A stretch of DNA of 57,079 nucleotides, filler included, from Sluysia triapertura (taxonomy: Eukaryota), in assembly GCA_046118255.1 (NCBI GenBank). It is 4 parts of 4 records of this genome, joined end to end, with 100 filler letters (N's around TTAATTAATTAA, not from the genome) between each part and the next. Parts side by side here need not be neighbours in the genome. Positions count along the whole stretch, not along the records: positions 1 to 18,702 come from JBJNIA010127519.1; positions 18,803 to 32,494 come from JBJNIA010024620.1; positions 32,595 to 44,719 come from JBJNIA010137062.1; positions 44,820 to 57,079 come from JBJNIA010124856.1. One strand, written 5' to 3'. The notes under the pieces were generated by a model. The model searched no databases. It saw only the letters and a program-made list of their open reading frames with translations, and was not told the origin of the DNA. Position numbers and translations under genes: made by a program. The first letter of the stretch is position 1. Each line of letters opens with the position of its first letter. Shown one piece after another: positions 5,871-54,937 of this stretch.

Positions 5871-6044
5871 CCATCACCAGTATTGACATAGCCTGTTAAA
5901 ATTCTCATTATTCTATCAATACTGATGATGGCTAATCATCAGCAACTACATTTTGCTACAGTGAAATTGATTTCTGCACGTCACCCAATCAGAGTCGATG
6001 TTGTTTAATGTTCTTTCTCGAGGCTCTGATTGGATGACCAATCA
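5871..6044 (+). promoter_or_regulatory. Double inverted-repeat module, copy 1
   Basis: Stem 1: CCATCACCAGTATTGA (5871) / TCAATACTGATGATGG (to 5931). Stem 2: CCAATCAGAG (5985) / CTCTGATTGG (6024-6033), then CCAATCA (6038-6044). Confidence 0.75.
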
Positions 6045-6117
6045 ACCATCATAAGTATCAATATAATTTTAAAAATTTACATTTTATTTCGGTAACAATA
6101 ACACTCAGAGGATTCTC

Positions 6118-7795
6118 GTGGTAAATTTTTTTAAAAAATTTTTTGGTATCACTATGAGATATATTTATAAAACTGAGAGAGATCTGTTGTGCTTTGGACC
6201 AAATGAAACAAGAGAAAAATTTATTTATCAGACAGTAATCTTAATATACAGCGATATCGAATATCAAGAAAATGTTAAAACACCTACGTTTTTAGTTTAT
6301 TCTTTTGGCTGGAATATAAATTGGGATCGAGTAGTACCTCAAACATTATTATTGCCCAATACGTCATTTTATAAACAATTGAAGAAGATGATTGATAAAG
6401 TTGTGAGAAGAAAAGCAAAATCATAGTCGTCGTAAATTGATTGATACAATTTTAGAATTAGCGAACATTGTTAGGCATGAGCGGAAGTGTATTTTAGAAG
6501 AGAATATGATAATCCTTCAATCCGTGATCGATAGTAAACTACGTGAATTAATCATAAATGATGTTCCGAATGAAGTTATAAAGTATTACCATGACAAACC
6601 TGTTAAAGATGTATATAAAATTAGGTTATACATCTTTTACTGTTTGAAAGTCGTGATTGGATGGCCAACCACAATCGACTTCGTATGAGTTAAAAATAGT
6701 TATTTATTTTCTTTATAACAAGATTGCAAAACAAAAAAATCAAGTACAGTATTGCTATTCAAAAATTTTTCATTTTTTTGATATTGAATGTCTAAATTGA
6801 AAAGCTAACATAATCGAAATTAATTTAATTTCATAAAAATTATCATGGCAAACAATGTTCTAAAACAATTTATCCATGATTTCGAGTTTAATAGTAGAAC
6901 CCGTTGTCCTGATCGTCAGTCTATTGTGAACAAATCGTATCAGCTATAGATAGTAAAGATAACATCGCTGTAGATATAGAATCAACATCAAATTTTGAAT
7001 ATCAAGTATATTGCCGAAGCATAGAATGTCAAGATAAAATATTGATGTATTTTAAATATGTAAATACCTTTGACGTAACAAATTTTTTGTCTGTTGATGA
7101 AAAACAAAATGGCAAACATCACTACATTGTTCATATATCCTTGAAAACACATATGCGTAGATCATATAAGAACCAAAGATGGAGCGTAAGACCAATACGT
7201 TATTGTTCTGGCCAGATATCACGACGTGAAATAAGATATCGTAAAGATACCATAGATGTAACAAACCTATTGTCGGATGATAAAAAAGAAAACACTGATG
7301 AAATAACGAAAACATTTTTATTCACAATTGATCCACCTAGATACAACCTAGATAAAATTTGTTATCGATTCGTCATACACTATGAAACAAAATTTGAGAT
7401 TAGAATTTAAAAGTCGTACCGTCAAAATTCGTATGAGTAATGTGGAAAATCTCAGTGAGACACATAATCATATTTTATGGATAAGAGTGCACGGTGGTCG
7501 AATTGGTTTAATCTTGGTCACAGAATTTAAGTTATGGTCTATATCCGATTCTATCATCAAAGCATCTTCAGTTTATGTACACCAGTTTAAGGATTGGTCT
7601 GACAAAGGATGGCTCCCTTATGCAAGAATTAATTATAGATTTATATCGTTTTTTACTTTAGATGATAAACACAATTCTGGGTTCAACGGAATGCAACACG
7701 ATGCAATAATGGATTTTGACGTAACGATATTAAAATTAGTTTTCAAAATTAAATATAATTGTTTATTCAATAAAATTGTCTTAGTTAACTTATAA
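6118..7795 (+). pseudogene. Fragmented, apparently intronless orphan ORF downstream of module copy 1
   Basis: Chain of same-strand ORFs (6118, 6437, 7042, 7382) broken by stops and frameshifts, with AATAAA near 7769. No recognisable domain. Confidence 0.5.
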
Positions 7796-10700
7796 ATAAT
7801 TTTGTATTGTAATATGAAAATTTTAAATTCAGTAATAATTGTATTGAAACCCTTGAATTTTAATATGAATTACAGTAAAGAAATATCTTCAGGTTAACTT
7901 TGAAATATAATTTTAATTATTCTTTTTCCGAGTTCATAAGTCCTGACTTTAATAATTCTAAACCTAGGTCTGTATATATTATGATATTAATCAATACTAT
8001 ACGTTTAAAAATTAAACTAAAGTCAGTCACTTTAACTCTCCATTCAATCTTTCTAACTAATACTCTGATGATTAATTGTTATTTCAGTACTATAATAAAA
8101 CCTAGATCATCCAATCAACCGGTAAGCAATATACAACATAAGAACTATTTTCATCCTCTTAGCAATATAAATTACTTAATTAAGTATCTAACACTTGAAG
8201 CTTACAAAACTATAAATTGGTTTGAATTGCTCAAATTTCAACATCTAAAAGTGTACTTAGTTTCCGAATATAAACTTTTAAATTTGCCCCATGTTTTCAA
8301 AATAAAATTTCCAAATTGTGTATTAAAATAATTTACCTAAATTAGCAATTGAGAAGTTATTGAAAAATACCACGTACATTGCATCTAAGTGGTAAGGAAT
8401 TCTTTTATACAGCATTCTTCACTAAAAATCCTGTGAGTACGTCTTTCACGCGATATAAACCGTGCATCACAGGCGAACCCGTAAATTTAATAATTTCATA
8501 ATTGTTCATAACTCAGAAAAAGTTGAACATAATTGTATCTATATATAGTGATAATATTATATCGTCCGTTTTGAATTGTAATAATGTTATGATCTCATAC
8601 CGACTATGTACATTCAGAGTACTTATGCACGCCCAACGAAAGGGAATTAAATATCGTTTTAAAAGACTAATGAAAGTTTTAGAAGGTATCACTTTAAAGT
8701 AAGTTTGAATGATCGGTATAAGAGAAGATTGGTATATTAATTCGCATGCCTCTGCCATGAAGCTTTTAGGCTGAGAACAATTAGAACTTATAAAAAACTT
8801 GTAATAATAATGACCATAAAAGTTTGATAATTTATTTTTCAAATTTATGGACAAAATTCTTTTCGATTTATATTTCAATAAAATATTATTTAAAGTTTTA
8901 ATTATCCTAAAGTAAGACTTATTATTACTAATTAAATTTAAAATTTTAACTAATGCATTTATTCAACATAGCATTATGATTAAATATTAAATTAAAGAAA
9001 TTTTCTAAAAGATAAAATATTGTTCGTACTTAATGGTTTATAATTATTGTTCTTGGACCAGACATGTTAATTGATTGTGTAGTACTGTGGAAAGCTATCT
9101 TCAAGATCGTCTATGAAATGTATTTTATTTAAATTTATCATTAGTTTGAAGTAATTTATCACAAACCATAGAGTTCTTAAATGTATCTAAAACGGGGAGG
9201 GTAGGAGTGTCTAGTATTTCACATTCTGGTTTAAATTCATTTCACAATTCATCTTCTGTCCATCACCTTGATGTTTTACTTTTAAATTAATAGATTGTCT
9301 CTGTCTAATTTTCTCAATTTGACATTTGAAATTAAATTTCATTTCGATTTTAACTTCTTTTTCCTCAAAGTTAAATCGATAATTCACCAGAAATCCCAAA
9401 AATTCCAGAGTAGAAATTCAACAAAATCAAATTTTCAAAAAGGAGATTTACAAACGGTGATTTTCACTAAACTGACGCTAGTTTATATACAAGTCATCAG
9501 CCAATAGGAATCGATTCTAAAAGCTTCTATTCTATTTTTAGGAGTGAATTTTCTTTTTTCGAAATTTTATTTTTAAAGTGATTTTAAAATGATTTTAGAT
9601 GGTTGAAATGACAACCTAACACTGCTTTCTTTTTGAAATCTCAAAGCCTAGAAGCTAACTTCAAATTTTATATTTTTTGTGTAACTAATTTTGAAAAAGA
9701 TTTTAGTTTAAGTACTTCATTTCGAATATAAAAACCGAAAATTAAATCCAAAATAAAATTAAATTTTCTTATTACTGTTATCAAAATAAAATGTTACTTA
9801 AAAAATGCATTATTAAAATAAAATGTTACTTAAAAATAAAAATTGTTTATAAAAATACAATTTTCTTAGGCATCACATAACAATTTTTTTCAACCGTTTA
9901 GTTAAAATCATCCACCTTACCTTTTACGGGCATAAAATTGCATAAATATTTTATCATCCAACCATGGACGATAACCGTGCAATGATTATTTCTGACGAAT
10001 GTGTAAATGGAACATCTACATAGACCATTTTAATTCACATTGTATTATCAATATGATTTTGTAAGTCACAATAACACGGGCAAAATTTTAATAGCTTTGA
10101 ATAATACTTTAAAATAAATAATGCACATTACTTATCTTAGTTTTCACTATTTTTCAAATTTAATTTGCGTAATGATTTAATATTAAAATTCAGTGAAGTA
10201 GAAGTTTCAGGAGATCATTTTTGCTTCGAGTTCATAACAATTAATAATTATAATAATATTATTAACACATTATATTATTATTATCATTACATTTTTAAAT
10301 GATTTATTGCTTACTTAATTTTAGCGTCACTTTAAAATCAATAAAGGTTTATCCACGTCAGCACTTGAAATTTCAAAATGTCGAAAAATTTCTTTTTTTG
10401 AATGAGGTTTGTCGAGTTTATTTATAGTTTATTATAGTAAATAGTATTTCATTACAAGATTTTAGATATTTTTATTAATGTTGTGAGAACTATTAAATTT
10501 ATAAAATTATAATAATAAAATCAAAAAAATAAAATGTAAATAAATCTAACATCATAAGTAATATTAAAATAAAATTCTAACAAAAAGTAAATCTGAAATC
10601 TGAAGTATATTTAATTTTATTAAAATATATTAGAATGACGATTTAAAGGAATGAGACTTATAATGCTAATGAATGATTGTTAATGAAACCTAAATGAATG

Positions 10701-12834: not shown

Positions 12835-12906
12835 TAGAGTGACTAGACTTCCCGGATTGTGCGGAACAGTCCGGGATTTTATTCATTGTCCGATTTGTCC
12901 CAGATT
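12835..12906 (+). mobile_element. Probable hAT (Tip100-like) transposon terminus
   Basis: TAGAGTGACTAGACTTCCCGGATTGTGCGGAACAGTCCGGGATTTT resembles the YAGGGTGACCAGA..TCCCG..GGGACAGTCCCG terminal pattern. The other end was not found. Confidence 0.55.
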
Positions 12907-13211
12907 AGTCAGTTATATTTTTTAGAATGTTGCAATTACTAATAAAAAGATTGGTTGCATATAATTACATTGTTATACCAATAAGACAGAGCGCGCACTA
13001 TAGATACATCAATATTAAGGCATCGTGAGCGCTCTGTTTCGCCTAAGCATAGCTAGCAAATACTTTGTGCATGCGCATATTTTTATCGTGCATACTAACA
13101 TACTACATACATACATGTGCACAGTGTCTTAGAAACGGCTGATGCTGAATTAGTGTACTTGTTTTTCTTATGATGGTTAGTTGTATCAAATCAAAACCTA
13201 CATAAAAAAAG

Positions 13212-13770
13212 TATAGTGGATAACTGTTATAACTCCTAAAACTTTAAAAGAAAAAATTAATTAAACCTCATACACACTCACAAAACAGTTCATTTGTCTA
13301 AACTAAACCATATTCACAATTTCATAATATACAAACCACAGTTAAATCCAATACCATAAACTTTCACCAACAAACCTACCAAAAACATGTAACTCAATAT
13401 CCACTACAACCAAATAATTTCCTCATTTAAAATTATTTACTTCACGCCTTCGAATCAATTACAACACCTTAAATTCACCATTTGTCTCAGCATATTCACC
13501 AATAACACAATACAATACAACTCAAAGACAACAAATAAACAAATCACATACAACATTACACAAAATATTTCAAATATACCAAGAGTTGTATTGTAATTTA
13601 TCCTTTTACACTACCCTACCACATTCGTCTTAGTGCATCTCTTCACAATAACCTTTCAATATTTAAATATTACTTTCAATCAAGAACTTAAATCACCATT
13701 TAAGAATTCACTCTAACATTCTACATTTTACTGCATAACAAAAGCATTCTTACCATATCACATTACGACA
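13212..13770 (+). repeat. G-poor cassette leader (same subfamily as 3951-5560)
   Basis: Starts TATAGTGGATAAC. Shares TTCACGCCTTCGAATCAATTACAAC and AAATATACCAAGAGTTGTATTG blocks with the 4-5 kb units. Confidence 0.8.
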
Positions 13771-14051
13771 AAGATATACGCAAAAATCTTTAGTTTAAAT
13801 ATGTGCAAATTTTATTTCTTTGTTGATTTAAAATATGTTAAGAATTAAAAGAACAAGACAGAAAGGTCGTACATACTTAATACAATAAATTTATGCATTT
13901 TGTTGTCATTATTGCTACTATTATTACCAATTCTATCATTTAATTCGTTATTATTATCAAATTATCATTATATTTTTTATTATTACCATCATTATCGACA
14001 TTTTAATTTTAATTATTGGTTGACTAAAATTATACACAAATCAGTATCTAC

Positions 14052-14212
14052 CACTATCAATAATTAATTCCTGCCAATACATTTTAATTAACATCACTAC
14101 TGATAGTGCTTAGTTCGATAATGTGCACTATAAAATTTTACTCTTCCTGGCATCCAACCAGAATTAAATTCATTTTTGTTCTACCAAACGATTCTGGTTG
14201 GATGACCAATCA
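14052..14212 (+). promoter_or_regulatory. Double inverted-repeat module, copy 2
   Basis: Stem 1: CACTATCA (14052) / TGATAGTG (14101-14108). Stem 2 is a perfect 14 bp: CATCCAACCAGAAT (14151) / ATTCTGGTTGGATG (14191-14204), then ACCAATCA. Confidence 0.75.
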
Positions 14213-14466
14213 CCGTACAACAGACAAGTGGTATCAATGTTGACGCGATGATTGTCACAATTTTTTTAACAAGTATTTTTTTGATACAATCTACGAATCG
14301 CTACTTGCTAATCATAAAGAAATAGCTATAAACGGCGTTTACCATTTATTCGGTATACTGGAATCCAGCTTATATCTTAGTAATACATTGTTCATCGAAT
14401 TCTAGAAAGAAACAATTCAGTTTAACGATTTTAGCAGTGCATGCACCGCTGTAAAAGATTTAACTG

Positions 14467-15262
14467 TTGCCAATATGTCACTCGAAGATCAACATCAGAA
14501 AGATTATAAACCAATATCAACAACTAGTCATCACGTTTATGAATCGATATTATGTGTTCGTTGGAAAGCATAATCGAAGTCAGAGGATAAGACCGAAATT
14601 TAATTTAGAGCCAATTAAGTTGATTATATCTGTTAATCCAATTTCAAATGTTTGTAACATGGAATTAAATGCTAAACCAGACCATTTTGTTAGACTATAT
14701 TCTGATAATGAAATTCAACGTGAAAACTCGGTCGAACTAATTTTATGTAATATCAATAATTTCTACTCAAAAAATGTAAATGATCGTTCCCTTCTGGTCA
14801 TGACCAACGACAAATTTAAAATAAAATTCTTTATACTCAATTTTCAAGAAAATGGTAAAGTTAACAAGTATAGTAATTCTAATTTTATATTTGTTTCTTA
14901 TATACGTTCATTTATGTATTTTTGTTATTGAATCACTGAATTCACTTAATAATAACGAGTCTAGTTTTGTCACATTTTCTACTTTTAGTTTAGAAATTGA
15001 TCATATTAATGTATACTTTGTTTCTGAAATCGATTTTAAATTAGTTGATAGAGTCATACTGTACATGCCCAAACTATTAGTTTCTATGAAGAATTCTAGT
15101 CTCAAAAGAGATCACATCTCTAAAGAGTATATTTATATTATTGTGAACAAAGGTATGACTTTTGTAGACGTGTTTAGAAATAATTTTAAAGGCCAGTATA
15201 TAACGAATTATGAGAGTAACATTAAATCTAAACATATGAATTACCTAACTACGACGCAATAG
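14467..15262 (+). pseudogene. Fragmented orphan ORF downstream of module copy 2
   Basis: Overlapping ORFs 14467..14931 and 14852..15262 (frameshift-like). No recognisable domain. Followed directly by piggyBac-like ends. Confidence 0.45.
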
Positions 15263-15372
15263 TGATACTTAACCCCTTAACTCGAGCGAAGTAAACCCTC
15301 TGAAATGAGAACACTCGAGTTAATTCGAGCGTCAACACTTTTCGTATTACTTTAATAATCACAATCGTTTAA

Positions 15373-15478
15373 CCCCTTAACGTTCAATTTTTTGTAAATA
15401 TCACACTAAAATATAGTTTAGTAAATAATGCAGCAATAAAAAATGAGTTTTTTTGAAAAAAAATTGAACGTTAAGGGG
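15373..15478. mobile_element. piggyBac-type MITE (106 bp)
   Basis: TIRs CCCCTTAACGTTCAATTTTTT / AAAAAATTGAACGTTAAGGGG, flanked by TTAA on both sides. A related orphan end TTAA-CCCCTTAAC sits at 15269. Confidence 0.85.
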
Positions 15479-16479
15479 TTAATAATTGTGTCACACTTGT
15501 CAATAAATGGATTTTTAAAGATGTCATCATTATCGCTGATATCCAATACTTCATTACTACTAGATTTGATTACATTTTTTAAAATTATTTATTCGCTCAA
15601 ACTTTGACTTAATAGTACTAATTTATCATACTTTAATTTATCAATAAGTTTATTTATTTATTTTGTTTAAATTTTGGACACAGTATATAATAATCTGAAG
15701 AATATTTTAGTTATCATTATATCTGACTGCGACCAAATGATTGATATTTTCTTTATTTTAATTTGCAGAACAAATTGATAATTTTATGAACAATTCATTT
15801 AATTTTTGTACAAGTTATTGAATGATTTTCTAATTACGTCAATTTATATATAGATTTTTTTATTTGATAACTTATTTAAATTGATGGAGTAGTCATCCGT
15901 TTTAAATGTGAATTTTTTTGGTTCACACAATTGAAATTGTTTCTTGCATCTCATGACTCGTTATATATAATTTGAAAAAATAACCAATGAATAATCTTTT
16001 AAATTGTTTTGGTTTCCATTGATTAAATCTTAAAACGTGTCCTTTTTAGTTTATACTTGCTGATGTAACAATAATTGAATAAATAAATATTTATACATAT
16101 TTTCTCTCTAGATACCATATTGTATTTTCTACTGAATCATTTTTAAATAATAAATAAGAACAAGAGAATTTAAATATAAAGAATGTGGTAATAATAACAA
16201 AATTAAATTTATCAATACAATCTCATATGTTGTACTAAATGTGCCATTGTTGCTACCACAAAACAATAAATATGATGAGGAAAATCATCGTTTTCTTAGG
16301 CAAATAAGTTGATAATTTTCTCCATTCACGTCTTGACGATTAAAACAAGTCAAATTATTCTGTGACTTATACAGTTAAAAACACATTTTATATAATGTTT
16401 TTTTACTGTTATAAGCAAAAAATGTTTCTCAATTCTATTCTATAATAATTTCTTCATAATTAATTTTTCACTAGATAAT

Positions 16480-16970
16480 CAATTTTACATATAATAAAAT
16501 GTAGAATTTAATCTTATTCCATATGTTTTTGTTGCATCTTTTTGCTTAATAATAATAACAAATTAATATCGATTAATCTATTTAACAAAACCTCCGTAAT
16601 TAATCACTAAATTCAATATAAAATTATCATAATTTCCCTTATTTCGACGATGTTATTTATTCAACCCAAAGATTAAGTTTTTTTAATAAAATAAACAACA
16701 ATTTAATAATTTAAAGATTACAATGAAATCAAATACAAATTACTGTTATAAGACTTTGCTAAACAACATAAAATGACAAAAACTACAGGAGTAACAATAA
16801 CATTTATAATAGTGTCAAGAATATGACATTCTACATGAAGAAACCAGGAGTGACGCAACAAACTAAAAAAACAATATATATAAAGTGAAGAATAATGCTG
16901 CCAAAATATTTCTAGACAGCTTAACCAAACGTAATTACAATTAAATATTATAACAAAAATTTGGGCAGAT
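16480..16970 (+). repeat. Unclassified dispersed repeat, segment C
   Basis: Core AAACCAGGAGTGACGCAACA. Reverse-complement copies at about 39100-39510 and 50350-50800. Confidence 0.7.
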
Positions 16971-17439
16971 ATTCTTCCTAAAATTTAACAGTAATAATAA
17001 AATGCGTATTGTATCTCACAAAACTAATCTTAAAGTCCCAAAAACATAAATTACAAAGGGAGTCTCCCACCTTTATGATATTAAAATCCCTTAAAAATAA
17101 ATTTAATATTTTAAAATAAATTGCAAAGACAGTCTTCCTCTGAACTACAAAATTTAAGAGTAGTCCCACAAAAAAATCAAATGATAATAATCAAAATAAT
17201 ACTCAAAAATAATAATATTAAAATAATAAAATAAAATATGTAATCTTCACCCAAAGCATGGATTTTCTCAATGAGCCCTGTTTTTTTGTAGTGTGATTGT
17301 GTAATTGTGTTGTAAAAATTTAGAAATTTTTATTTTATACTCTCATCGTCCAATCAATTCCCAGTCTTACAACCAAACACTCTGACACAAATCATCCAAA
17401 CTTCTGAAAATCAAACCGACAATAACATTGATAATTACA

Positions 17440-18405
17440 TGGTTAGGTCTGTCAAACCTTATTAGGTACAAAACATAGAAATCTGATTTATTATCATCCA
17501 TCACTTCCTTTTACTCAACTTAATCTACTTTTACTTAAATTACTTCTCACATTAAAATAACAATCAATAATATTATTAACATGCATAAAAATAATGAATT
17601 TAATTGAACTTTTTTATTATTTAATTAATTTTTTATTTTCACATCCAATTTTCTAATGAAAAACGTTTTAAAGTTCTTATTCTCAAAAGAACCATTTTAC
17701 AAACATTTCGAGTTCACTTATAGATTTTCCTCTTTCATCTCATAAACCATTCATCATTTTTGCATCACTCTAAGTATTAAAAATTCAACATTCCATAATT
17801 AAAAATTAATTAAAATTTGACTTTGCTCAATATTAAGGCTTTCCTTGCACAAGCTCGGTCAAATCATATCTTCATCATATCTTCTGCATTCATAAAAACG
17901 TACATTTTCTTAATTAAGTTATTAAGATGTTTAATTAGTTAATCTATTTTTAGACTTAATCTTATTTTATGTTTAAAGGTTTATTGAGGTTCTAAAATTT
18001 TTTAGTAGTTCATAAGGCATTCAGGAAGCTCTAGATGTTTTCACCTTCACTTCTCTTACTTCTTTTTCTACTTCATGTTAATTATTACCATATTAAACTT
18101 ATATTTATTATTTGAACAATGATTATATTTCTCAAATATTTTAAAGATTTTAATACACTTTATTACTCGAAGATCTTTGATGCTTATCAAGGTTTCAGGA
18201 ATACTTAAAGGTAATAAGATCGCAAATAATCTCAATGTTCACAAGCTCAAAAGTACTCTAATACTTTCAAAGATTTTTCAACTCCATTTCAAGTTTCCAC
18301 AAGATCTCAACACATTATATAGGTCTCTAAGATATTCTTCAGCTGCTAGCTTTATTATAAATGTTTTTATTTTCATGATTCCAACTCCGACAATGCTCTA
18401 TCTAT
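17440..18405 (+). repeat. Unclassified dispersed repeat, segment B
   Basis: Homologous to about 27020-27950 (-), 32620-32925 (+) and 38905-39095 (-), e.g. the TCAAGTTTCCA..GTCTCAA..TATATAGGTC block. Confidence 0.75.
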
Positions 18406-18702: not shown

Positions 18703-18802
18703 NNNNNNNNNNNNNNNNNNNNNNNNNNNNNNNNNNNNNNNNNNNNTTAATTAATTAANNNNNNNNNNNNNNNNNNNNNNNNNNNNNNNNNNNNNNNNNN
18801 NN
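18703..18802. other. Artificial contig linker (N44-TTAATTAATTAA-N44)
   Basis: Identical 100-bp spacer occurs three times. TTAATTAATTAA gives stops in all six frames. Confidence 0.95.
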
Positions 18803-20420: not shown

Positions 20421-20469
20421 CAATATTTGAAGACTTTCGAAACCAATGTTTTAATCCAAGTTATAATTA

Positions 20470-32490: not shown

Positions 32491-32494
32491 TAAC

Positions 32495-39510: not shown

Positions 39511-41091
39511 ACTTATAGAATTAAAACTAATGGTTACAATTATAAATCTTTTAAAAGTTCCATGTGTCAGCTAAGAGAAGTTATCACCAAATCCTTAGTA
39601 GCTATCTGGCAAGAGCAATTTTACTTGTGTTTAGTTGACGTTTGTCCTAAACCTTATATCGTTGATTTTTGATTTAACCTTGAGGTTTAATTAAGCAAAA
39701 TTATTTTCTCTACTTCAATTAAACAAAATTTTGTTTTCTCTAAACTTTAAATTTTAGATACTCATTAAATTAGAATAAAAATTAAAATAAAAATACATAC
39801 TTTCAAATATATAATCCAAATAATTTATTAATTAAATTTCAAAAGTTGTATTAATAAATTCAAAGTATACACATTATAAATCGATAAAGATTAAAATCAC
39901 ATTCATATAAAAATCAATAAAGTCACAATTACATACAACAAAATCTTTATTACACAAAAGGTTTTAATTATAAAGTATTAATTTTTTATTCTTGCTAGTC
40001 TTTGGTTCTTGTTATTATTGTTTATTAATCAGTTTATTAATAACATTTCATTTTAGTTACCTTTTCTTGATTAATCGTTAATTCCAGATATACTTACTAA
40101 ATTATTTTGTTAAGAGTTAAGACCTTCTAATTTAAAGAAATATGGAATTAAACTATACACAAACATAATATTTAATCTTGCCAGCATACAAATGCATCAC
40201 CATAAATTGTAGGCTGTAAGTGAATCTATTTTATGTACTTTGTGAGTTAGGATAAAATACTTGCAGATGTGAATAAGAAATTACTACAATAAAGTTAAAT
40301 ATCAAATTACCGGTGTTCATGGTGAAATAAACCTAAGCAAAATTTAGTGACGAATATTTTTTCAAATAAAATTATAGTTAAAATGTCAGATACAAAAAAA
40401 TCTTATTATCTTTGTTGAATACATAACAAGATAATAATAATACATGAAATTAAGAAGTTGAGCACTTTATATAATAACATGTTTACATATTAATAAGGCT
40501 TCTAGCTCACTATCTTTATAAATGTACTTAATTTAGAACTAAACCATCCTGACAATAAATGTAAAGTATTTTCGCAATGACTTTATAATATGTGCCAGTA
40601 CCATCCCAGTACTATCACATTCTCTAATAAACCTTTAATTTCTATAAATTTAACCATACAAAAGGGTGAAATATTTATATCTTTGAATTTATTCAAGAAT
40701 CAGGTAGAGAAATACACATTGAATAGAAAGTTGATGATAATAATTCATTTTGTGCCCAGTTTCTATTTTAATCACATACACTGCTTTAGTTTTAGGTAGC
40801 TTCCTTGAAAATATTCAACTAAATACTGATAATAATAAATCATAAACTGTAATATGTTACATTAATAACAATTTTTTAAATAAGATTTTTAAAATATTAC
40901 TTAATAATAAAAGAGAATAAAATAAAATATTAACTTATAGCGTGAGCTAATGGCAAGAAATTAATTTTTTTAAAATTATTCATTTGTTGTATTTTAAAAT
41001 TGCTACAATATATTTTTCTAAATTCTATTTGATATTAAACAAACAGAAAAAAATTTATATAAAAATACAAAAAAATTAGTTTAATGATAAA

Positions 41092-44719: not shown

Positions 44720-44819
44720 NNNNNNNNNNNNNNNNNNNNNNNNNNNNNNNNNNNNNNNNNNNNTTAATTAATTAANNNNNNNNNNNNNNNNNNNNNNNNN
44801 NNNNNNNNNNNNNNNNNNN
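44720..44819. other. Artificial contig linker
   Basis: N44-TTAATTAATTAA-N44. Confidence 0.95.
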
Positions 44820-45026
44820 ATAGTTCATGATAGTTAGATGGGATGGTCGTGTTTACTTTTGAATGAGTTTAGTAGTTCGTTTAATAGTTTGTGTATATGT
44901 GTAGCGTTTTTAAGCGATGGATTGTGATGAACTATATGTGATGAGTTATGATGAATATTATGTGATGAATTATGGTGAATACTATATGACGAGTTCCCTA
45001 CAATAAGCAAATAGTAATTATTTTCA

Positions 45027-45480
45027 ATGTTTGAACTGGAATATGTACACACATATTTCAAAATGCGTTTCAATGGTAGATGGATTCGAGCTATTATTGA
45101 TAACAGAGCTACCACATCTGTAATAAATTATAATTTTTTAACTACATGGGAACTTCTGTTTATGGATCCGCCACAAGCAATACTTTATAATGTACCAATA
45201 AATATGAATGGATAAATGGGTAAATGATTATATTTACGTTTGGGGAGATTCACCTTTTAATTTAATAATTGGTTTAGATATACTTGATAAGTTGGATGAC
45301 GTAGTTATACATAGTAAGTATGGTCTTATAAAATTTCCGCAATGTGCACAATTGCTACTTCCTCAGGTTGTTGTTCTATATCTTAACAATGACATTTCTC
45401 CGATTCATATTCCAACACCTTGTCCAGTATTACCACCTGGTCAGTTATGGATATATCATCTACTGACTCATGAATGTTAG
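45027..45480 (+). pseudogene. Degenerate retropepsin (LTR-retrotransposon-type aspartic protease), frameshifted
   Basis: MRFNGRWIRAIIDNRATTSVIN (ALIDSGA-type motif, mutated) and, in the next frame, FNLIIGLDILDKL (ILGxDFL motif). Confidence 0.75.
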
Positions 45481-46557
45481 CTGAAAAAGTGAAAGTAATT
45501 ATAAGATTAAGAAATCATCCTGGACACCGTTACTAGTATTAATGATTCTGTTTTAAACTCTAAATGGTATTTTTAAATCAATAGATATCGTAGAGGATGA
45601 GGAATATAGAAATATATGCAGCAATTAATTTAATGGAAAAGAAAAGTATATCGATTACAAATATTTACAATGAATATTTGGAAACAAAGTTTAGTTCAAA
45701 TTTGATATTTACTGCATTTACTTAGAACCTCAATTTATTGGTAAACCACATCATGTAGATAAAATTCCACGTTATCTGCAATATGCATATAGACCAATGC
45801 TAATAGCATTCGCATTGTGTGGTGGTCAACCTTTCACATTTTATAAAAATCCCTTTTCACAATATTACAAAACCATATAAACACTCAAAATATACAATTC
45901 ATATTCAAAAGTCAATATAAAACAATATCAAATCAAACCAACACATTATACATAAAACCTTATCCTTAAACATTTTAACATTCTCACGTTTATCTCCTCT
46001 ACATTCACCAAAACAATTCATCTACTAAAGTCATTTTATATCCACAGTCTCATAATATTTAAACCACAACAGCATTCTAAATCATTAAATTACATTAAAA
46101 AGTTACCTAAAATATTGTATCTCTCATCTCAAAACAACTCAAGCATAATCATATTCCAAAGTATTTAGACCATAATCACTTACATGTTAATAACATATCA
46201 GCTAGAAACATTATCTCAACATTAGAACGAGGTATCATTAAGACTGGTAAGTTAATCAGAAAAACCAAAGATACAAGAAAATATCATGTTCCTTCTTTAC
46301 CTATAACTTTTACATATGTTAAAAATGTTAAGACATAATAGAAAGATCGTGTTTATTAAAAGAGATATAAGAATTTCTGTGATTTTGGATAATAATAATG
46401 TTAACATTTTTTAATTTTTATTATTTTTATTTACAATTAAAAATATAAATTTGTTTTTAAACTACATTGATTTACAATGACAATGGTTTAGTGATAGTGG
46501 TTTACACATCAATCATATGGTTCATCTCTCAATTAATTAGTTCTCGATCTTTATTGT

Positions 46558-46619
46558 TGGTCGTCCAATCAGAGTTATTCTAATCATTAATTTTGTACGT
46601 TTCTCTGGTTGGACGGCCA
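46558..46619 (+). promoter_or_regulatory. Inverted-repeat module, copy 4 (stem 2; stem 1 degenerate at about 46460-46515)
   Basis: TGGTCGTCCAATCAGAG / CTCTGGTTGGACGGCCA. Confidence 0.75.
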
Positions 46620-46799
46620 GAGAAAATTTCTAATAAAATTTTTAGAAAATTTTTATTAGTAACAGCTGTTAAAAATATAAAGAATTTTTCTTACACAATT
46701 ATCACTGGTTAGACGATAAAAATTAATTATACTAATAAAAGAAACGAAACAAAAAAAGATTCAGATTATAAAATTAAAGAAAACGAAGAAATCGTTTAC

Positions 46800-47779
46800 A
46801 TGAGTTATTCAATTGATTACAGTAGACCTTTAGATTCACTGAAATTAACTGTAATTAGAAATTCTACTGTTAATCATGATAATGATGTAACTAAAAGATT
46901 GAAAAGTTATTTCACAAATGATGATGATGATAAAAATATCAACGAGATTAATAAGGAAGATGATGAAGAGAACGACGACGATGGCGATGGAAATATCAAT
47001 AAAAATAATAATGAAGATGATGGAGAAGATGAAGATTATGATCAAGAAAATTTTAAAAGTGATTTGGAAACTAATGCGAATAATAATAATAATTATAATA
47101 GGAATCAATTCACACCATCAAGTTCCTCACAAAACACCTTGGTCGATATACGTTTAAAGAATGTCATTCATGAACAAGATATTAAATTATATGATTATAG
47201 ACTATGCGCAGAAAAGATGCATGAAATATCATTACAAAGATAAAGCAATTTGATGATGATAAAATTACTGAGAAAACTGTTAGCATGTGAAATCTTATCC
47301 AACGGAAGGATCCAGCTATTAATTCTGTTGGCACGCAAAATAACAAAACATATTCAATACTATGTACTTATAATGCTAACCTGTATGGAGTATGTTCGAG
47401 ATTCAGATTTACGTGTACACGTGCACATACAATCAGTCAGATGCAGGAATTAGTATCAAACAACGATCAACAGCTAACTCATAGAAACAGGATGCATCAA
47501 TTATTAATGTCATTATATGACAATTCAACCGATGAAAAATTCGATTCGAAGACCAAATTGAATAGTCAAACCAGCAGTATGAATAGGGTTAAAGTAAAAT
47601 TTTATAAATTATACCACAGTAACTTATTGGTTATATTTTTCACTTCAGATTCTAGAATTTGTTTAAATGTAGCATGGCACGCTTTGGAAAAACTTGATTT
47701 AGTAAATATAATGACATTTTTTAGTAATAAATTTAAAAAATGTGTTGTTCTTATTATATTGTATATTGCCCTCAATTAA
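46800..47779 (+). pseudogene. Acidic N-terminus plus CCCH zinc-finger ORF, fragmented
   Basis: D/E/N-rich ORF 46800..47243. In the frame of ORF 47441, 47363-47428 reads CTYNANLYGVCSRFRFTCTRAH (C-x9-C-x6-C-x3-H). Confidence 0.65.
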
Positions 47780-47955
47780 TATGTTATGCAAATAATAATT
47801 TGAGTATTTTTTATAATTTTTGTAACTTTATTGTCCTAATTAACGGAAACTTATTAGTAAAATTCCTGATAAATAATAAATTTTCACTAAATTGTATTAT
47901 ACTATAATCATTTTTTTACCATTTTTAATTTAATTTCGTTATTTAATCAGTGATT

Positions 47956-48091
47956 ACTACTATCAATGGTGGCCTTGTTAGTTGCCATTGATAGTGGTTG
48001 GCTTTTCAACGTAAAAATAATTTGTGTTATTACTGGTTGTCCAATCAGAATGGCTCTCTTCATTATTTTTATCACTCTGGTTGGCCAGCTA
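47956..48091 (+). promoter_or_regulatory. Double inverted-repeat module, copy 5
   Basis: Stem 1: ACTACTATCAATGG (47956) / CCATTGATAGTGGT (47985-47998). Stem 2: TGGTTGTCCAATCAGAATG (48034) / CACTCTGGTTGGCCAGCTA (48073-48091). Confidence 0.75.
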
Positions 48092-48306
48092 ATAGAAATT
48101 CACTGTGAGGACATATACGTGTGCAAAAATTTATACATTATCAATTTAATGGGAGTCAAAAAATGTTTGCAAAGTGAGTAATGTCTACTGCTGAGTAAAT
48201 ATAGTAGTATTTGTGTTTATCAACAAAATAATCTGGCTGTTAAAGTTTATTTTTCTTATCATAAAAGCGCAAATTATGAATTATCTATAATCATATCGTA
48301 AATACA

Positions 48307-49611
48307 ATGGATTTTCTAGATTTAATTATAGACAAACATTTCTTAAAGCGAAAATCAACTATAGATCTGAGATTGCAAATAATTAAACCTACAAATACGA
48401 ATATAACGACTTTAACAATTGAATTTCAAGCTACCAATACATTCAACACAAGTACTTTGTTAAAATCATGTAAGTATAATCGAGAATATCATGTTCAGTA
48501 ACGACAATAATGTTTATATATTAGTACTTTAGTAAAAATTAATGAATCTTTTCTAATTTATTATATTTATTTACCTACACTCTAATCCTATGTTCGATGC
48601 CAATGTCCCAGGAGAATTTATTAATCAAAATTTAGAGCAGACTATTACCTCTATAAATTGCTATGAAAATATATTTGATGTTATAAAATGTGAAATTTGC
48701 ATTTCGAGAACAATACGAACTTAAGCATTGAAAACGTTATCAGGATTTTCTCTCGTATTTATTTAATTCTAAAAGCTAAAAGATCAAATGGAAACTTGAA
48801 AGAGCATGCCTTTCATGAAATTACAATGTCGATTCGTGCAGAACTATTTGAAAATTATAAAGATGAATTTGAGATGATCCAAGGGATGTTGAGTTTCCGA
48901 ATGGAAACAGGTGCAGAGCTCGCACCAATGATTGTTTGTATAATTTACAGTTATTCCGTCACTGGTAAAGGAATACTTATGGCCGATATACGATTGAAAG
49001 AGGATAATCTACTAAACACTAATATCATCAAAATGTTTATAACAAGATCAATGAATACAGGCTTAAATTTAATTTCAGACGAACTTCTACTAATAAATAT
49101 ATCCCAATTATATATTGAATATAAAGAAAAATGTAAAGAAGATTCTAAAAAAATTTCTGTATGTCATTATACTATTCCTTCTAAGTGTCATCGTTTTAGC
49201 CATATATCGAAGAGTATAATATGTATTCCATCAGTTCCTAGCAATTCAATGTTTCGTAAATAGTCCAATAAAGCATTAATTACAAGTCAACGCATTAGAA
49301 CTGCATTTTGCCCATATAGAAGTAACCTAAATGGTAGGTATACGAAATTCGGAATCAATTGTTTATGTGCGCAAACGATGAATCAGCTGGTGAATCATGG
49401 AGCCGAATGTACTTATTGCATGGATCACTTGTTCAGACTTACGAACTTGATGAATTGTATTGAAATAACAACTTCGAAAATATATAACAAAGTTAATTAT
49501 ACTGATTATAATAAAGTAATTTCCTTTTATTATCACACCAAAAACAATTTGATTTTCATTTTCTTTTTTGATAGCGAAACGTGGATGACCAAGAGCACCG
49601 AAGACATTTAA
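48307..49611 (+). pseudogene. Fragmented ORF with a degenerate CCCH finger, downstream of module copy 5
   Basis: ORFs 48307, 48697 and 49378. The last two are in frame across one TAG. 49309-49374 reads CPYRSNLNGRYTKFGINCLCAQ. AATAAA near 49649. Confidence 0.6.
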
Positions 49612-50349
49612 AGTTTTAAATATCCATATTTTTAAATTTTATATTTTGAATAAAAATTTTAGTTTATAAATTTTCTTTGTTCAATCATAAACTTTTAAAC
49701 TCAATTTTATATTTAAGATCGTTGAACATTAATTTAAGAATGGAAATTTTAGAATTTAAGATAATAAAAGGTTGCATTATCTTAAATCTATTAACCTATT
49801 TTCGTATAAATTAAAACCATATTTAGTAACAAAACATTTTTATCCACAACAAATGTCAAAGCTGTTATTGTCGGTCTGATTCTCAAATAAGTTTGGATGA
49901 TTTGTTTGAGACTAGGAATTGACTGGATGATGAGAGAGTATAAAATAAAAATTTCTAAATTTTTACAACACAGTAACAATGACAATTATGCAATTTCCAG
50001 TAAAGATCCATGCATATGGTAATGTTCTTGTTTATTTTTATTTTTGTTATTTTATTATTTTAAAATTAAAATAAGATAATTAATTGATTTTCTTTTAACT
50101 TTATTTTTGATTTTATTTTAATATAATTTTAATATAAGTTAATTTTGTGCTACTTTTGTTGTAAGTTTTTTATTTTATTTTCAGCCATTTTTAGAGTATT
50201 TTTGTGAGGAACTCTAAACAATTTTTGTAAAAGATTAAATTTGATTTTCAGCCATTTTCGAACTAGATTTGTGTGAAACACCCTACGCAATTTATTTTAT
50301 CGAAACATTAAATATTTCTACTTTAAATATTAATGTTAAGTTTTAGAAA

Positions 50350-50800
50350 GGATCTCTGCCCAAAAATTTTTATTATAATTGTGATTGTTCTTAGTTACGT
50401 TAACTAAAAATATTTAAGTAGAATAATTATTATTAACTTTCTAGATATTGATATTGTTAGTGTTTGTTGTGTCACTCCTGGTTTTTCAGTTAGATCGGAG
50501 TATTTTTAATATTATTATAAACGCTATAGTTAATTTTGTCATTTTAGTTATTTTTGGTATTGTTTGATGGAAAGTCATACTAATAACAATAAATTCTAAT
50601 TTGTTTTTTGTTTAATGGTAAATTATTGCCTTATTTTTGATTTGATTTTAAGAGCTTAATTTTGAGGAATAGTTATTAATATTAAGAGAATTACTGCAAA
50701 ATTACACTTGCTATAGTGACTACTTAAATTTTTAAGATTCTTTTAAGTTAATCAAGATAATATTGAGTTATCATAACTAATAATATTTAAAGACGCAGCA
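50350..50800 (-). repeat. Dispersed repeat segment C
   Basis: GTCACTCCTGGTT core and AAGATAATATTGAGTTATCATAACTAATAA shared with 39100-39510. Confidence 0.75.
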
Positions 50801-51240
50801 GTAATTCGAATTTAAATTTAATTTTACAGTCTTAAAATTTTCGATATTTGTTACCATTACGCCCAATTGCCATTATAACTTCAACGCAATCTAACAAAAA
50901 AACTTCACATTAACGAACATGTATAAAACACAAACACGATCTTTACAGCACGTCTCACTTTAACAATTATGCACAATTGTATAATCGTCATTATGAACAT
51001 TGTTGCCATTATTCTATTTTCTCTTATTATTGTTACTGCTCTATTTATGATTTTTATATTTTCTACTCGTGTATGTACGTATTAATAACAACTCTTGTCA
51101 TAATCTTTAACAAAATCAATCAATAAACAATCAAAATAAAAATGTGACACTAAAAAACAACAATTAATTTAATTGAATTATAATCAGAATCAGAATTTTT
51201 AAATTCAATTATCATAACTAGAAGTAACTGCCAATAGCAT

Positions 51241-51641
51241 CAAACTCCTGATTTAATGGATAAGATGTGTAATTTTGTTAACATCAATTCTTACAAAGAT
51301 GAAATGATACTAAAGAAATTATTTCACTGGTTTAATTGGCTTAATATACCTCAATGTCAAAGTGTTCTGATTCATATCAATTTATTGATTAATCCAAATC
51401 GTGAGAAAAGTAAACGTTGAACAACAAATGTGGAAATTTATAAATTTAGCTGCAGTTGCATTATGAGTTGAAATTACTTCATATTATTTATACCGTTTTC
51501 GAACTTACAGTGATCCGAAAATTCTACGAACAACTAAAACTGGTCGATGTGGAGAGTGGGTTGATTGCTTCAGATTAATTTTAATTATTTCTTGTAGCAC
51601 GTTATGTTACGGATTTGGTCGATCATGTGTGGTGTGAAGTT
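51241..51641 (+). pseudogene. NGLY1: Peptide:N-glycanase (PNGase) transglutaminase-domain fragment
   Basis: LKKLFHWFNWLNIPQC, RFRTYSDPKILRTTKTGRCGEWVDCF and RYVTDLVDHVWCEV match PNGase LLxWFK..FxWVN, RFPRYNxPxxLLxTRxGRCGEWANCF and RYVxDxxDHVWTEV. In-frame TGA at about 51418, plus deletions. Confidence 0.85.
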
Positions 51642-51704
51642 AATGGAAAACAATAGGTAAATTCAGTTCATCGATTAACTCGAGATGAAATTAAAGAACT
51701 ACTA

Positions 51705-51910
51705 TGCAATTGTGTGTTATCTGTGTTTCAGGTACAGAATGATAATATAATTTTGATAGTGGATAATGAATCATTATATAATTCATGTGTAAAACGACTT
51801 TTCATACATCAACCTACATTAAATAAAATAAATCGTATTATTTTTCAAACTATAAATTCATTTACTTTGTTATGCATTTTGTTTTCCACTAAATCAATTA
51901 GATTCTTAAA
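51705..51910 (+). pseudogene. Divergent alpha-tubulin internal fragment
   Basis: NCVLSV..IVDNESLYNSCVKRLFIHQPTLNKINRIIFQTINSFT..SIRF versus alpha-tubulin [42 protein letters not shown]. Confidence 0.75.
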
Positions 51911-52306
51911 TTTTGAGCAAGTTTGTTTGCCAGGCTTTAATTTATTAAAAATATAGGAATTTGGATATAAATTAAAAACGTAAGCAAATTTATAAATAAT
52001 TTTTCTTTTATGTTTCTAACTGGACAATGGGTTCTGTTTTCTTCTTTAATGGAAATTATCTTCGATTAATAATTTTGTTAGTTATTTGTCCGTCTGTTAT
52101 TTAATGAATTTCTTAATCTATTTAATTTAATTTATTATTAATTATGTTAGTTCACAATACATTTTATTATTAAATTCAATTAACAATACATATTAAATTT
52201 ATTAATTTATAATTTCTGTTAATATTAAATTTATTATCAATAATTTACTAATAACATTATGTTAGTTCATATTCACAATAAATGAATTATAATCATAGTA
52301 ACAATA

Positions 52307-52338
<32 letters not shown>

Positions 52339-53329
52339 GTTAGTATTCACATTTTAACTGATTTCTGGTGTTATATTTGCATCTATTTTGATTCGTGGTG
52401 TTTCTGGAAGTGAATTAAGATTGAAAGATTCGTAGTCATACTTACTTCTGATACTTTTTGATGTTTAAAAAGATATACTTTGCGTTTTTATCATTTTTTG
52501 AGTTGTAAAGTGAATTTTCATATATAATTTGATATTTTTAATCTTGTAAATGATGGAGATACAATACATTCGAATGTTTTTATTTTCATGGCATTTTCAA
52601 CAACATTTACATTTTCGAAATATTTCTTTCAACAGGCTGAATGAGGAGTCCGAGAATGAATGCATTTGAAATGATTTATTATGAAATACACTGAAAAATG
52701 TAATAAAATCTGTTTTATTTTGATTTAGCAAGAAGTCAAGAAACATTATGGTTGTGATGCTTATGATTCCGTTGACATAGAAAATGTTGGAAATAGTGGA
52801 TCTGCATATTCGCATTTCGACGAATTTATTGCTCATGTTAGTTTAGAATGTTCTTCCTATTGTAATATAATTATAATTAATACGAGGATTCAGTAGTCCA
52901 TTATGAATGACAGTATCGACGAATACAACAAGTAATATTTTCATAGACGAATGAGGTAATTCCGGAAAAAAATCGATATTAATTAATTTTAATTATTAAT
53001 AAATTTAATAGGTGCAAGACAAATAATCAAAGATTGGTTAGAAAGCATTGCACATGTCACAGTTATAGTTGAACTTATTAAAATGGTCACTTTTGATTTA
53101 TTAATACACGAAGATGTTCAGTAACCATGGTGGCATGATGCAGAAACAAAGCCAAAGTCGTCAAAAGAAGACAAAAGATGAGATGAGAGAAAATGTGAAG
53201 TGTTTAAAATAAAAGTATAATCAATTGAAAGAATTAAATTATAAGACACAATAAGTAAAAATTAGTGATATAATAGAGATAAAGAAGTTTTGAATAAAGT
53301 TGTTGACTCTATTCGTAATTCTCAATAAA

Positions 53330-54770
53330 TTATTTGTAACTAACATTCAACTTATATAAACTCGATAATGCATTAATAATTTGTTTACAATAAAGCTCGA
53401 CCATCCTGTTTTTTGTCATTGCATCGTCATCGTCAGGATCGGTTTCAATATTGAATCTAACTAACATGTGACCATAAAAGACAACTGTAATTTTGTGATC
53501 AGAATTGGTTCCATAAGGAGTACATAGGTAACATAGTGATTCATACTTGAGAAACTGTGGCATTTCACATTGATCATTTTGCCGATTATCAAAATTACTC
53601 GACTAAGTTCTGAGAAATCCCCTACTTAAGTACTAATATTGTCTGCAATGCTATGTTTGAATTCCTTCATTATTATGTCGACCGATATTCTATGTTTCAC
53701 ATCTAAATGTAAGTTGTTGAAATAAGCAGTGATGTTGTTATGTAATTTCTGACTCAATTTGGCTACTTCAGGTCGGATTAACACTTTTATATTAGTTTTA
53801 TTCACCGCGAAAATTTCGTGACTAGCTTCCAGAGTTTCATCTTTAGACTAGATGACGTTATTAAATATTTGATCTATGTGAATGCTCGGACAAAAAGATA
53901 AAACTACTCTGATACGATTACCAATCAAACTATTATGGTAATCTAAACAGATAGAAGTCATAACCGAGTGTAAAATTTCACTTAAGTAATCAGGTAGTGT
54001 TGTTTTCATGATTTCTTCTTCCATCATTCCGTCGTACTTATCCATATGACTTCGATTCTCTTTAATAATTGCTTTACTTTTTATATGGGTAGATGCAGAT
54101 ATTTTAGAAGTCTTATAAACCTTTGGACTGACAGTAACAATTTCTTTCGCCATCGAAATGATAAGTTGAATAGGCGATTGATTTGTAAAAATTGCAATAA
54201 AATTTGATTCAGAAACATTACCAAATTCATAATAGCTTTGATCATTAACAATTACCGACACGATTAAATGCAATTTAAATCTACTTATATTTAACCTTCT
54301 TTCTGTTGCTGATTTTTTACTAAATATTCTTGAATTCCTTGATAAATATCAATTAAATTGACAATCATTTTGTTGTCACCATCATAAATATCATCTGCTG
54401 AAATACAAGACAACAATACAATTAAAATTTGTTGAAATAATACTTCGATAAGCCTATTGATATTAAGTATACTAGAAGATTTATCATTGAATTATAGATG
54501 AATATCATTGAGCAAAGAATTAAAAATTTGTTTATGAATTCGAATTAATAACTTATCTCCTACATTCTTTAAATCACTTATACAAGTATACTTTTCTTCA
54601 TCTTTGAAACAATTATCTGATAAAATTAATAAAATGAGTCGTACTGTTGTGTTGCAACACAGACTTGAACAACATATTCGATAAAAATACGTAATTATTT
54701 TTTGAGCACCGACTATAATTTTTGTAGTAATATTGTCCAATCCAAATAAGTTTAATTTTAGTATTGATAT
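53330..54770 (-). pseudogene. Fragmented orphan ORF downstream of module copy 6
   Basis: Chain of minus-strand ORFs (54492-54794, 53848-54273, 53330-53563) broken by stops. No confident domain. Confidence 0.45.
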
Positions 54771-54773
54771 AAC

Positions 54774-54937
54774 ATTGATTGGACGTCCGATCAATTTCTA
54801 TATTTAGGGAGCCACATAATTATATAGGCACGTATGCAATTATGATGTAACACTGATCATATTGAATGTAATTAACTGTCATCAGTCGACAGTCAAGTGA
54901 CATGCTGGATAATTTATCAACTGTCGACTGGTGACAG
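54774..54937 (-). promoter_or_regulatory. Inverted-repeat module, copy 6 (minus strand)
   Basis: Stem 1 matches 17/18: CTGTCATCAGTCGACAGT (54876) / ACTGTCGACTGGTGACAG (54920-54937). The minus strand then reads TGATCGGACGTCCAATCA (cf. TGATTGGATGACCAATCA in copy 1). A TAT-rich spacer lies upstream at 54960-55060. Confidence 0.65.

Follow-up and report, generated by a model that had tools for sequence, protein, structure and literature searches.

Double-palindrome modules ahead of variable ORF chains in Sluysia triapertura point to a mobile, gene-carrying repeat family

The window analysed here is the whole of a 57,079-base stretch of DNA from the Sluysia triapertura assembly GCA_046118255.1, with a GC content of 26%. 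Filler N's with the six-frame-stop linker TTAATTAATTAA stand at 18703-18802, 32495-32594 and 44720-44819, and from these three gaps the window is read as four joined contigs, whose order across the gaps is possibly artificial. It contains six copies of a double-palindrome module, each followed on the same strand by a chain of open reading frames (ORFs), together with the host gene UCHL5, an intronless G protein-coupled receptor (GPCR) host gene and other repeats. This paper concerns the module and the larger repeat units in which it lies, which a preliminary description of the sequence had interpreted as a family of mobile cassettes whose signal is portable and whose cargo varies.

The double-palindrome module

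Each module consists of two successive palindromes, stem 1 and stem 2, and the six copies are as follows:

5871-6044, plus strand: module 1, with stem 1 at 5871-5931 and stem 2, an inverted CCAAT pair, at 5980-6038
14052-14212, plus strand: module 2, stem 1 weak and stem 2 strong
22609-22765, plus strand: module 3, from the inverted-repeat scan, folding and the stem-2 pattern
46460-46619, plus strand: module 4, from the inverted-repeat scan, folding and the stem-2 pattern
47956-48091, plus strand: module 5, without a leader and with a TAT-rich spacer only
54735-54937, minus strand: module 6, the most divergent copy

The six places named in the preliminary description hold. The stem-2 pattern CCAAYC-N28-42-GRTTGG has six matches in the 57,079 bases, one per module, against 0.02 expected by chance, and none of 100 shuffles reached six. 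Module stems account for eight of the ten strongest inverted repeats of the window, where four shuffles yielded zero to one such repeats. The nhmmer/Infernal-type model that had been proposed was run on the window: leave-one-out nhmmer recovered modules 1 to 5 (E at most 2.2e-7) and missed module 6 (E about 6), which was the top match beyond the training loci of a covariance model built from modules 1 to 5 (26.1 bits, rough E 0.007; next unrelated match 14.6 bits). This covariance model found no seventh module in the window, and neither it nor the stem-2 pattern places a module near UCHL5 or the GPCR gene, in agreement with the preliminary description. The location of module 6 also stands, although its stem 2 extends to about 54735, past the limit of 54774 first assigned to it.

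Folding beat shuffled sequences in all six modules (z -2.4 to -8.2, over both strands and both RNA and DNA parameters). In the alignment of modules 1 to 5, pairing holds in 86.6% of 149 cells, and 9 of 31 pairs differ on both sides (five in stem 1, four in stem 2; 0/500 shuffles as high), the structure being derived from the same sequences. Stem 1 is weak in modules 2 and 4, both of which failed the strict inverted-repeat scan. Mismatches of the G.T type (would-be G.U pairs) occur on both strands, and folding with RNA parameters is better on the antisense strand for modules 1-3 and 6 and on the sense strand for modules 4 and 5; since no RNA strand is favoured by either, a DNA palindrome fits better than a single RNA strand. 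The Rfam scan gave two matches, both far below the gathering score, and no ribozyme, and the ARAGORN scan found no tRNAs. A hammerhead ribozyme was tried and rejected: the word CTGATGA is present in modules 1 and 6, but the remaining core is absent by eye and Rfam has no match.

The CCAA-C/G-TTGG core is invariant in all six modules and its spacer is variable, and the inverted CCAAY pair of palindrome 2 spans 42-49 bp. Such an inverted core speaks for modules that are crossover sites, at which recombination would excise, duplicate or swap module-plus-ORF cassettes within the larger element in the manner of an integron. We regard this as distinctly unlikely; the span compares poorly with the sites of tyrosine recombinases, which have arms of 11-13 bp and a spacer of 6-8 bp (PMC3212892).

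The stem-2 pattern also matched 72 metagenome loci, where similarity to the module is restricted to stem 2 and no leader or cargo similarity was found; one viral contig likewise matches the pattern. Of these loci, 47 (L001, L002, L003 and 44 more) form an AT-rich palindromic family resembling MITEs (miniature inverted-repeat transposable elements), with an inverted GTCCAATCAGA pair at the centre and TTAA near the ends. This family is unrelated to the window outside the central word pair, and its members have an ORF nearby on only 7 of 61 sides. A further six loci of one record series (L014, L029, L037, L045, L046 and L047) carry the same inverted word pair in surroundings that are alike by eye, and are unclustered.

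Leaders, terminal motifs and larger units

A 14-bp TG motif, TGTRGTRRYCMACM, opens four of the five leader copies (at 3951, 4817, 21655 and 45818), leader 2 lacking its 5' part, and with a leave-one-out matrix the left motif ranked first of 2946 TG sites for each of these four leaders. Inverted copies of the motif are the three top minus-strand matches, at 6673, 16260 and 23573, downstream of modules 1-3 (score at least 16, 0.05 expected). The leaders and units are:

3951-4816, plus strand: leader copy 1a, left motif degenerate, A/C-rich (G 5%), interrupted at the purine block, where unit 1b begins
4817-6673, plus strand: unit 1b, 1857 bp, with left motif, leader, spacer, module 1, cargo and inverted motif
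13265-16260, plus strand: unit 2, about 3 kb, with 5'-truncated leader, module 2, cargo and inverted motif
21655-23573, plus strand: unit 3, 1919 bp, with left motif, leader containing an internal repeat of ~385 bp, module 3, cargo and inverted motif
45818-46345, plus strand: unit 4, with left motif at an insertion boundary, leader and purine block

Leaders 1a and 1b are 80% identical over 694 bp. The leader was rejected as a coding gene, with stops in all frames and an ORF excess that is absent in two of four leaders and marginal in the other two. Six of the seven ends (four left and three right motifs) read TGTNR, the complementarity between the ends of a unit ceases at about 14 bp, and no homology was found just before the three right ends beyond the terminal motif itself, a half-palindrome similar to the 3' arm of stem 2.

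Ends of this kind raise the possibility of a DNA transposon of the cut-and-paste kind, non-autonomous and bounded by Ginger/IS3-type TG...CA ends, which would have captured DNA by gap filling or template switching as do the Pack-TIR elements, named after their terminal inverted repeats (TIRs). Stem 2, which is like two facing terminal motifs, would then serve inside the element as a transposase-binding site, or else as a promoter. We consider this explanation possible, if doubtful. It draws on the TGTNR ends, on the resemblance between the stem-2 arms and the terminal motif, and on the make-up of the 1.86 and 1.92 kb units, in which the left part is constant and the inside variable; multicopy Pack-TIRs do exist in animals (PMC8277862). 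The inverted ends here measure merely ~14 bp, however, against 40-270 bp in Ginger, and a 4-bp duplication was not seen.

Multicopy status and an insertion boundary

The SRA run X1 contains the stretch at 0.61 of its words, and mapping of its contigs covered 44820-57079 (12.3 kb; leader 4 and cargo 4-7), yielding 11,208 contigs, 7,916 of which are under 95% alike. Among the sites listed, 50-65 contigs per site were found at the leader and 6-37 at cargo (maximum at cargo 5), the leader exceeding cargo 4. Exact pieces have a depth of 8-26, and depths add up to 6,388 in the bin at the start of leader 4, 147-2,127 in modules and cargo and 47-98 at 50955-51772, in a run that is perhaps the window's own sample and where depth is not a copy number. 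Leader 4 and cargo 4-7 are multicopy in X1. Directly upstream of unit 4 lies another repeat:

45018-45817, plus strand: repeat of high copy number in which retropepsin-like words are seen by eye only; unit 4 is inserted into it

Its protease-like ORFs have no Pfam or PDB match. In 21 X1 contigs the sequence of this repeat diverges behind 45817, exactly at the start of the TG motif, and from this sharp divergence we read unit 4 as an insertion. Together, the multicopy status, the boundary at leader 4 and the TG...CA-type ends bear out the mobile cassette family of the preliminary description.

The same data bear on the crossover sites introduced above. In one X1 contig, with a depth of 21, the 5' half of module 5's stem 2 runs into the 3' half of module 4; this contig, the tandem cassettes 4-5 and 7-6, which lack a leader, and the larger number of contigs at leaders than at cargo 4 count in favour of such sites. 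The chimeric joint is a single contig, though, and may come from a third module similar to modules 4 and 5, and the paralogy of cargo 4 and 5 is accounted for by ordinary tandem duplication. The integron-like array of the preliminary description has this one contig in its favour, and against it that no recombinase was found among the ORFs scanned.

The cargo ORFs

A Pfam domain scan was made of 92 of the 104 window ORFs of at least 62 amino acids (aa), omitting 12 low-complexity or shadow-frame ORFs. The chains near the modules are:

6154-6426, plus strand: cargo 1, MSL3 chromodomain ORF of 90 aa (Pfam PF22732, E 4.4e-14; PDB human MSL3, E 1.8e-7)
6845-7795, plus strand: further ORF chain, family not found, lying past the inverted motif that ends at 6673, with no complete module of its own
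14464-15262, plus strand: cargo 2, two overlapping ORFs, no family matched
22950-23430, plus strand: cargo 3, D/K/Y/H-rich ORF built of 30-bp repeats
46713-47779, plus strand: cargo 4, acidic N-terminal ORF and C-terminal ORF with a CCCH finger; a weak Atlas lead (0.87)
48307-49611, plus strand: cargo 5, broken ORF chain, C-terminal part related to cargo 4
53330-54650, minus strand: cargo 6, CH-like domain DUF5745 (Pfam PF19016, E 1.2e-5, 25.5 bits against a cut-off of 27)
55505-57077, minus strand: cargo 7, ORF chain upstream of module 6, UNK-like CCCH finger (PF25427, E 1.2e-5, 25.6 bits against a cut-off of 31.1), leaving the window

The sense-strand ORF content of all eight downstream regions exceeds that of all 200 shuffles, and a same-strand ORF chain does follow each module, as was first described, although the chains are not all different: three ORFs (in cargo 4, in cargo 5 and in the chain upstream of module 6) have CCCH zinc fingers, and two of them are related, cargo 4 and 5 having a common C-terminal CCCH region (26% over 96 aa, pairwise E 4e-5). 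The cargo is also not wholly unrecognisable, since three pieces match ordinary eukaryotic domains. The CH-like domain of cargo 6 is presumably of the CEP95 type; beyond it cargo 6 has no credible relative, the one match of its middle part being a repetitive protein. The second ORF of cargo 1 (6407-6688, 93 aa) overlaps the first and is MRG-like by eye only, with no database relatives, and no homologues of cargo 5 were found, viral contigs included. Two single-sequence AlphaFold models had a mean predicted local distance difference test (pLDDT) score of 43.6 and 39.1.

From its reading frames the cargo appears intronless: the MSL3 domain is uninterrupted, while the introns of host UCHL5 measure 34 bp, and rescue of a break by a GT-AG intron is impossible at 9 of 16 cargo breaks, under a strict filter that one of the two UCHL5 introns passed. 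The decay of the ORFs noted in the preliminary description is partly borne out; breaks are present, but three of them read otherwise in related X1 contigs. At two stops of cargo 5 all covering X1 depth (7 and 15 contigs) reads otherwise, as do twelve contigs where the frame of cargo 6 breaks for the last time, and these three breaks may be private to the copy, polymorphic or assembly errors.

Host-type cargo with lesions unseen in X1, which are maybe polymorphisms or assembly errors, could be expected of a cluster of related host genes that spread by segmental duplication, shares one tissue-specific promoter and is not mobile in itself, the more so as tissue-specific promoters of planarians are marked by CCAAT and TAT repeats (PMC10558129). 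The sharp, TG-starting insertion boundary inside another repeat, the common terminal motif with its inverted copies, cargo that consists of single domains fused to unrelated sequence, and the lack of a module at the intron-bearing UCHL5 make this very unlikely. Only a little more probable, and still unlikely in our judgement, is a mobile element built as a modular gene array, in which each module serves as promoter and crossover site alike and cassettes that include captured chromatin-reader and RNA-binding domains are gained, duplicated and exchanged between copies as in an integron, some of the cargo being intact and expressed.

Intronless multi-ORF arrays with one recurrent upstream signal are also reminiscent of fragments of an endogenous DNA virus with a palindromic promoter for each gene, and the second- and third-ranked Atlas matches of cargo 4 are unnamed viral clusters (0.83, below evidence level). 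This option of the preliminary description found no support: no viral domain is present in the 92 ORFs, the viral contigs hold no relative of cargo 5 or of the CCCH alignment, and the units with ends of their own are under 2 kb, all of which reduces it to the slimmest of chances. Domains of gag, reverse transcriptase (RT), integrase and tyrosine or other recombinases are likewise absent from these 92 ORFs.

Divergent alpha-tubulin fragments were observed at 26159-26701 and 51657-51956, both on the plus strand (PDB E 2.6e-14 and 6.5e-6), the first with a novel tail of 120 aa; they may be more captured pieces or pseudogenes.

Host genes and other repeats in the window

34515-35706, minus strand: UCHL5, host gene with two 34-bp introns
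16470-18402 (plus), 49854-50990 (minus) and 38888-39540 (minus): second, very high-copy repeat family resembling long terminal repeats (LTRs), with further copies at 27457-28043 (minus), 32618-32944 (plus) and 8430-8529 (plus)

The introns of UCHL5 are of a size typical of some flatworms, and its closest relative is 61% identical. The only two matches of the GPCR are receptors of Schmidtea mediterranea (46-47%). The host is read as a fast-evolving invertebrate, probably a flatworm, the latter from these two receptor matches; UCHL5 gave no placement. The second repeat family has a strand that is A/C-rich over ~1 kb, the same CRTCCAATCA word, TCGTCCAATCA near 17345 and an ACA/TGG junction near 17440; its copy at 49854 ends at the ACA/TGG junction and is solo-LTR-like.

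A remnant of a pogo-type DDE_1 transposase lies at 36562-37251 on the plus strand (E 3.1e-9), with a 96-bp palindrome nearby at 37384-37479. The regions 2866-3068 and 33351-33552 form an inverted repeat pair, 86% identical, that resembles a Tc1/mariner transposase C-terminus by eye, and a third dispersed repeat, also inverted (79% identical), is found at 20450-20718 and 32217-32489. Small MITE-like inverted repeats are present upstream of the truncated leader 2 (12850-13037) and in unit 2 (15369-15482), where perfect arms of 25 bp were noted.

Proposed origin of the units

The family is very probably mobile and carries captured ORFs, and this holds whether the units are related to LTRs, to Pack-TIRs or to exchange sites. 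Among the options offered by the preliminary description, a gene-carrying transposon or giant LTR fits best. The reading we tentatively favour, and to which we give somewhat less than an even chance, is that the units are oversized, LTR-derived, non-autonomous parts of a Gypsy-type retrotransposon, in which a palindromic CCAAT-like promoter would drive captured intronless ORFs. TGTNR termini are common to Gypsy LTRs and Ginger transposons (PMC2836005), and it is the combination of such ends with a complementarity of ~14 bp, far under that of Ginger, that leads us to regard the unit as a non-autonomous LTR of enlarged size. Similarly, the module is read as a promoter core on account of the CRTCCAATCA word shared with the second, LTR-like family and of the enrichment of CCAAT boxes and A/T trinucleotide repeats in planarian tissue-specific promoters (PMC10558129).

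A unit is ordered as the 14-bp TG motif, an A/C-rich leader of 550-800 bp, the purine block, the TAT spacer, palindrome 1, palindrome 2, one or more intronless ORFs and the inverted terminal motif. The units would be oversized LTRs, solo or orphaned, and a retroviral-type integrase supplied in trans would act on their short TG...CA ends. The module would act at the DNA level as a promoter core, and pieces of host mRNA (MSL3, CH-domain, CCCH) would enter the half that is transcribed when reverse transcriptase switches templates, a mode of capture we propose after LTR retrocopies (PMC5131818). Tandem duplication of module-plus-ORF blocks, as in 4 and 5, would have followed.

A number of observations weigh against this LTR reading. 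With regard to structure, differing 3' contents are unusual among LTRs of one family. No gag, RT or integrase is encoded in the 92 ORFs, none of three right ends is followed by a primer-binding TGG, and the window holds no near-identical pair of units, that is, two LTRs around an internal region; solo LTRs likewise lack a primer site, polypurine tract and paired LTR. The leaders share no sequence beyond shuffles with the second LTR-like family, and the similarity of leader 1 to leaders 3 and 4 is marginal. No right end was found in the window for units 4 and 6, and the empty-site route for unit 4 failed as well. In the flanks, the check for a target-site duplication found three of four bases alike at unit 3 and none at unit 1, units 2, 4 and 6 being one-ended. 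The likeness of the terminal motif to the 3' arm of stem 2 means that the right ends could be eroded modules, and the ORF chain 6845-7795 runs on past the right end at 6673. X1, moreover, possibly derives from the same sample as the window, and depth in it does not give copy numbers.

With regard to the promoter, the fifth base of the CCAAT word is T in 6 of 12 arms and C in the other 6, module 3 has no intact CCAAT at all, and C at this position weakens NF-Y binding. Because the paired CCAATCAGA palindrome also centres the unrelated, mostly ORF-less MITE-like family, the word pair alone is no proof of a promoter. As to capture through RNA, a small intron is plausible at 4 of the 16 cargo breaks.

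Several of these points favour the Pack-TIR explanation, namely the absence of both primer site and paired LTR and the central CCAATCAGA palindrome at 47 of the 72 loci. That explanation in turn has to accommodate cargo that is apparently intronless and a window whose sole transposase is the pogo-type DDE_1 ORF. The ends of the pogo family differ from those of these units. The ORF chains of 0.5-1.6 kb also contrast with the median capture of 224 bp reported for Pack-TIRs (PMC8277862).

If the oversized-LTR reading is correct, these units represent an undescribed gene-capturing family of unusual construction, with cargo inside an LTR-like unit and one conserved promoter module per ORF, and the host-regulator fragments amplified with it (MSL3 chromodomain, CCCH fingers) could affect silencing of the element or seed new genes. 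If instead the module were an exchange site, it would be a surprising eukaryotic counterpart of cassette arrays. The terminal motif and the module are direct probes for an autonomous partner.

Comparison with known gene-capturing systems

Gene capture by transposons is already known, whereas the present family is apparently undescribed: no description of module or family was found in the literature searched, which left outside Repbase, Dfam, most subscription papers, the primary Burro paper and supplements. The preliminary description is partly supported, and had noticed neither the termini nor that some of the cargo derives from the host; it is these two features that bring the units close to known gene-capturing elements, although membership in any single known family is not established.

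Helitron, integron and Crypton were tried and rejected. Helitrons start with 5'-TC and have a 3' hairpin and a CTRR end, whereas the boundary mapped here begins with TG and the hairpins are internal. An integron proper would have an integron integrase, and none is present among the 92 ORFs. Cryptons have no TIRs, terminal direct repeats of 4-6 bp and a tyrosine recombinase (PMC3212892, PMC13465315), whereas here inverted ends are present and the recombinase is absent from these ORFs.

Rotifer terminons resemble the units in their tandem multi-ORF chains, a repeated structured motif and capture of host genes (PMC6431247), but the motif of terminons is a hammerhead ribozyme on the 3' side, at telomeres, while that of the units lies 5' of the ORFs and matches no Rfam ribozyme. 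Ginger1 and Ginger2 share the TGTNR termini and the presence of extra host-type domains (PMC2836005); their TIRs of 40-270 bp, 4-bp duplications and integrase ORF have no equivalent here, and a Gypsy-like integrase ORF is missing from the 92 ORFs.

The closest systems are LTR-mediated retrocopies, the planarian Burro elements, Pack-TIRs and Ginger. LTR-mediated retrocopies (PMC5131818) likewise involve chimeric, partial pieces of host mRNA in non-autonomous LTR elements, an element promoter and further multiplication. In those elements a retrocopy takes the place of the internal ORFs flanked by the two LTRs, whereas here the cargo lies between the promoter-like module and a 14-bp inverted end, a second LTR is missing, and every ORF of a tandem is preceded by a module; the cargo is not flanked on both sides by LTR-element sequence. 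The giant Gypsy elements Burro/GYPSM1 of planarians (PMC6431247; Burro is also mentioned in PMC11410931) are alike in their probable flatworm host, host-like domains, accessory ORFs and multi-kilobase ends. Their MATH, BIR, BCL2, ankyrin and SUMO-like domains lie mainly in a polyprotein of ~4,900-5,100 aa, and in the available part of that account no module repeated for each ORF is described. Neither these domains nor gag-pol were found here; the comparison with Burro is one of descriptions.

Pack-TIR and Pack-MULE elements such as Ssk-FB4 (PMC8277862) are likewise non-autonomous, have inverted ends, and carry pieces of host genes that they amplify in animals, and host-derived sequence between the ends is seen here in the MSL3 chromodomain within unit 4817-6673. 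Pack-TIRs have ends and target duplications known from their superfamilies and a DNA-level capture with the short median given above, whereas the units have 14-bp TG...CA ends, no visible duplication and longer, apparently intronless ORFs behind a conserved module. If the LTR reading is correct, the family described here would add to the picture drawn from Burro, Pack-TIRs and LTR retrocopies.

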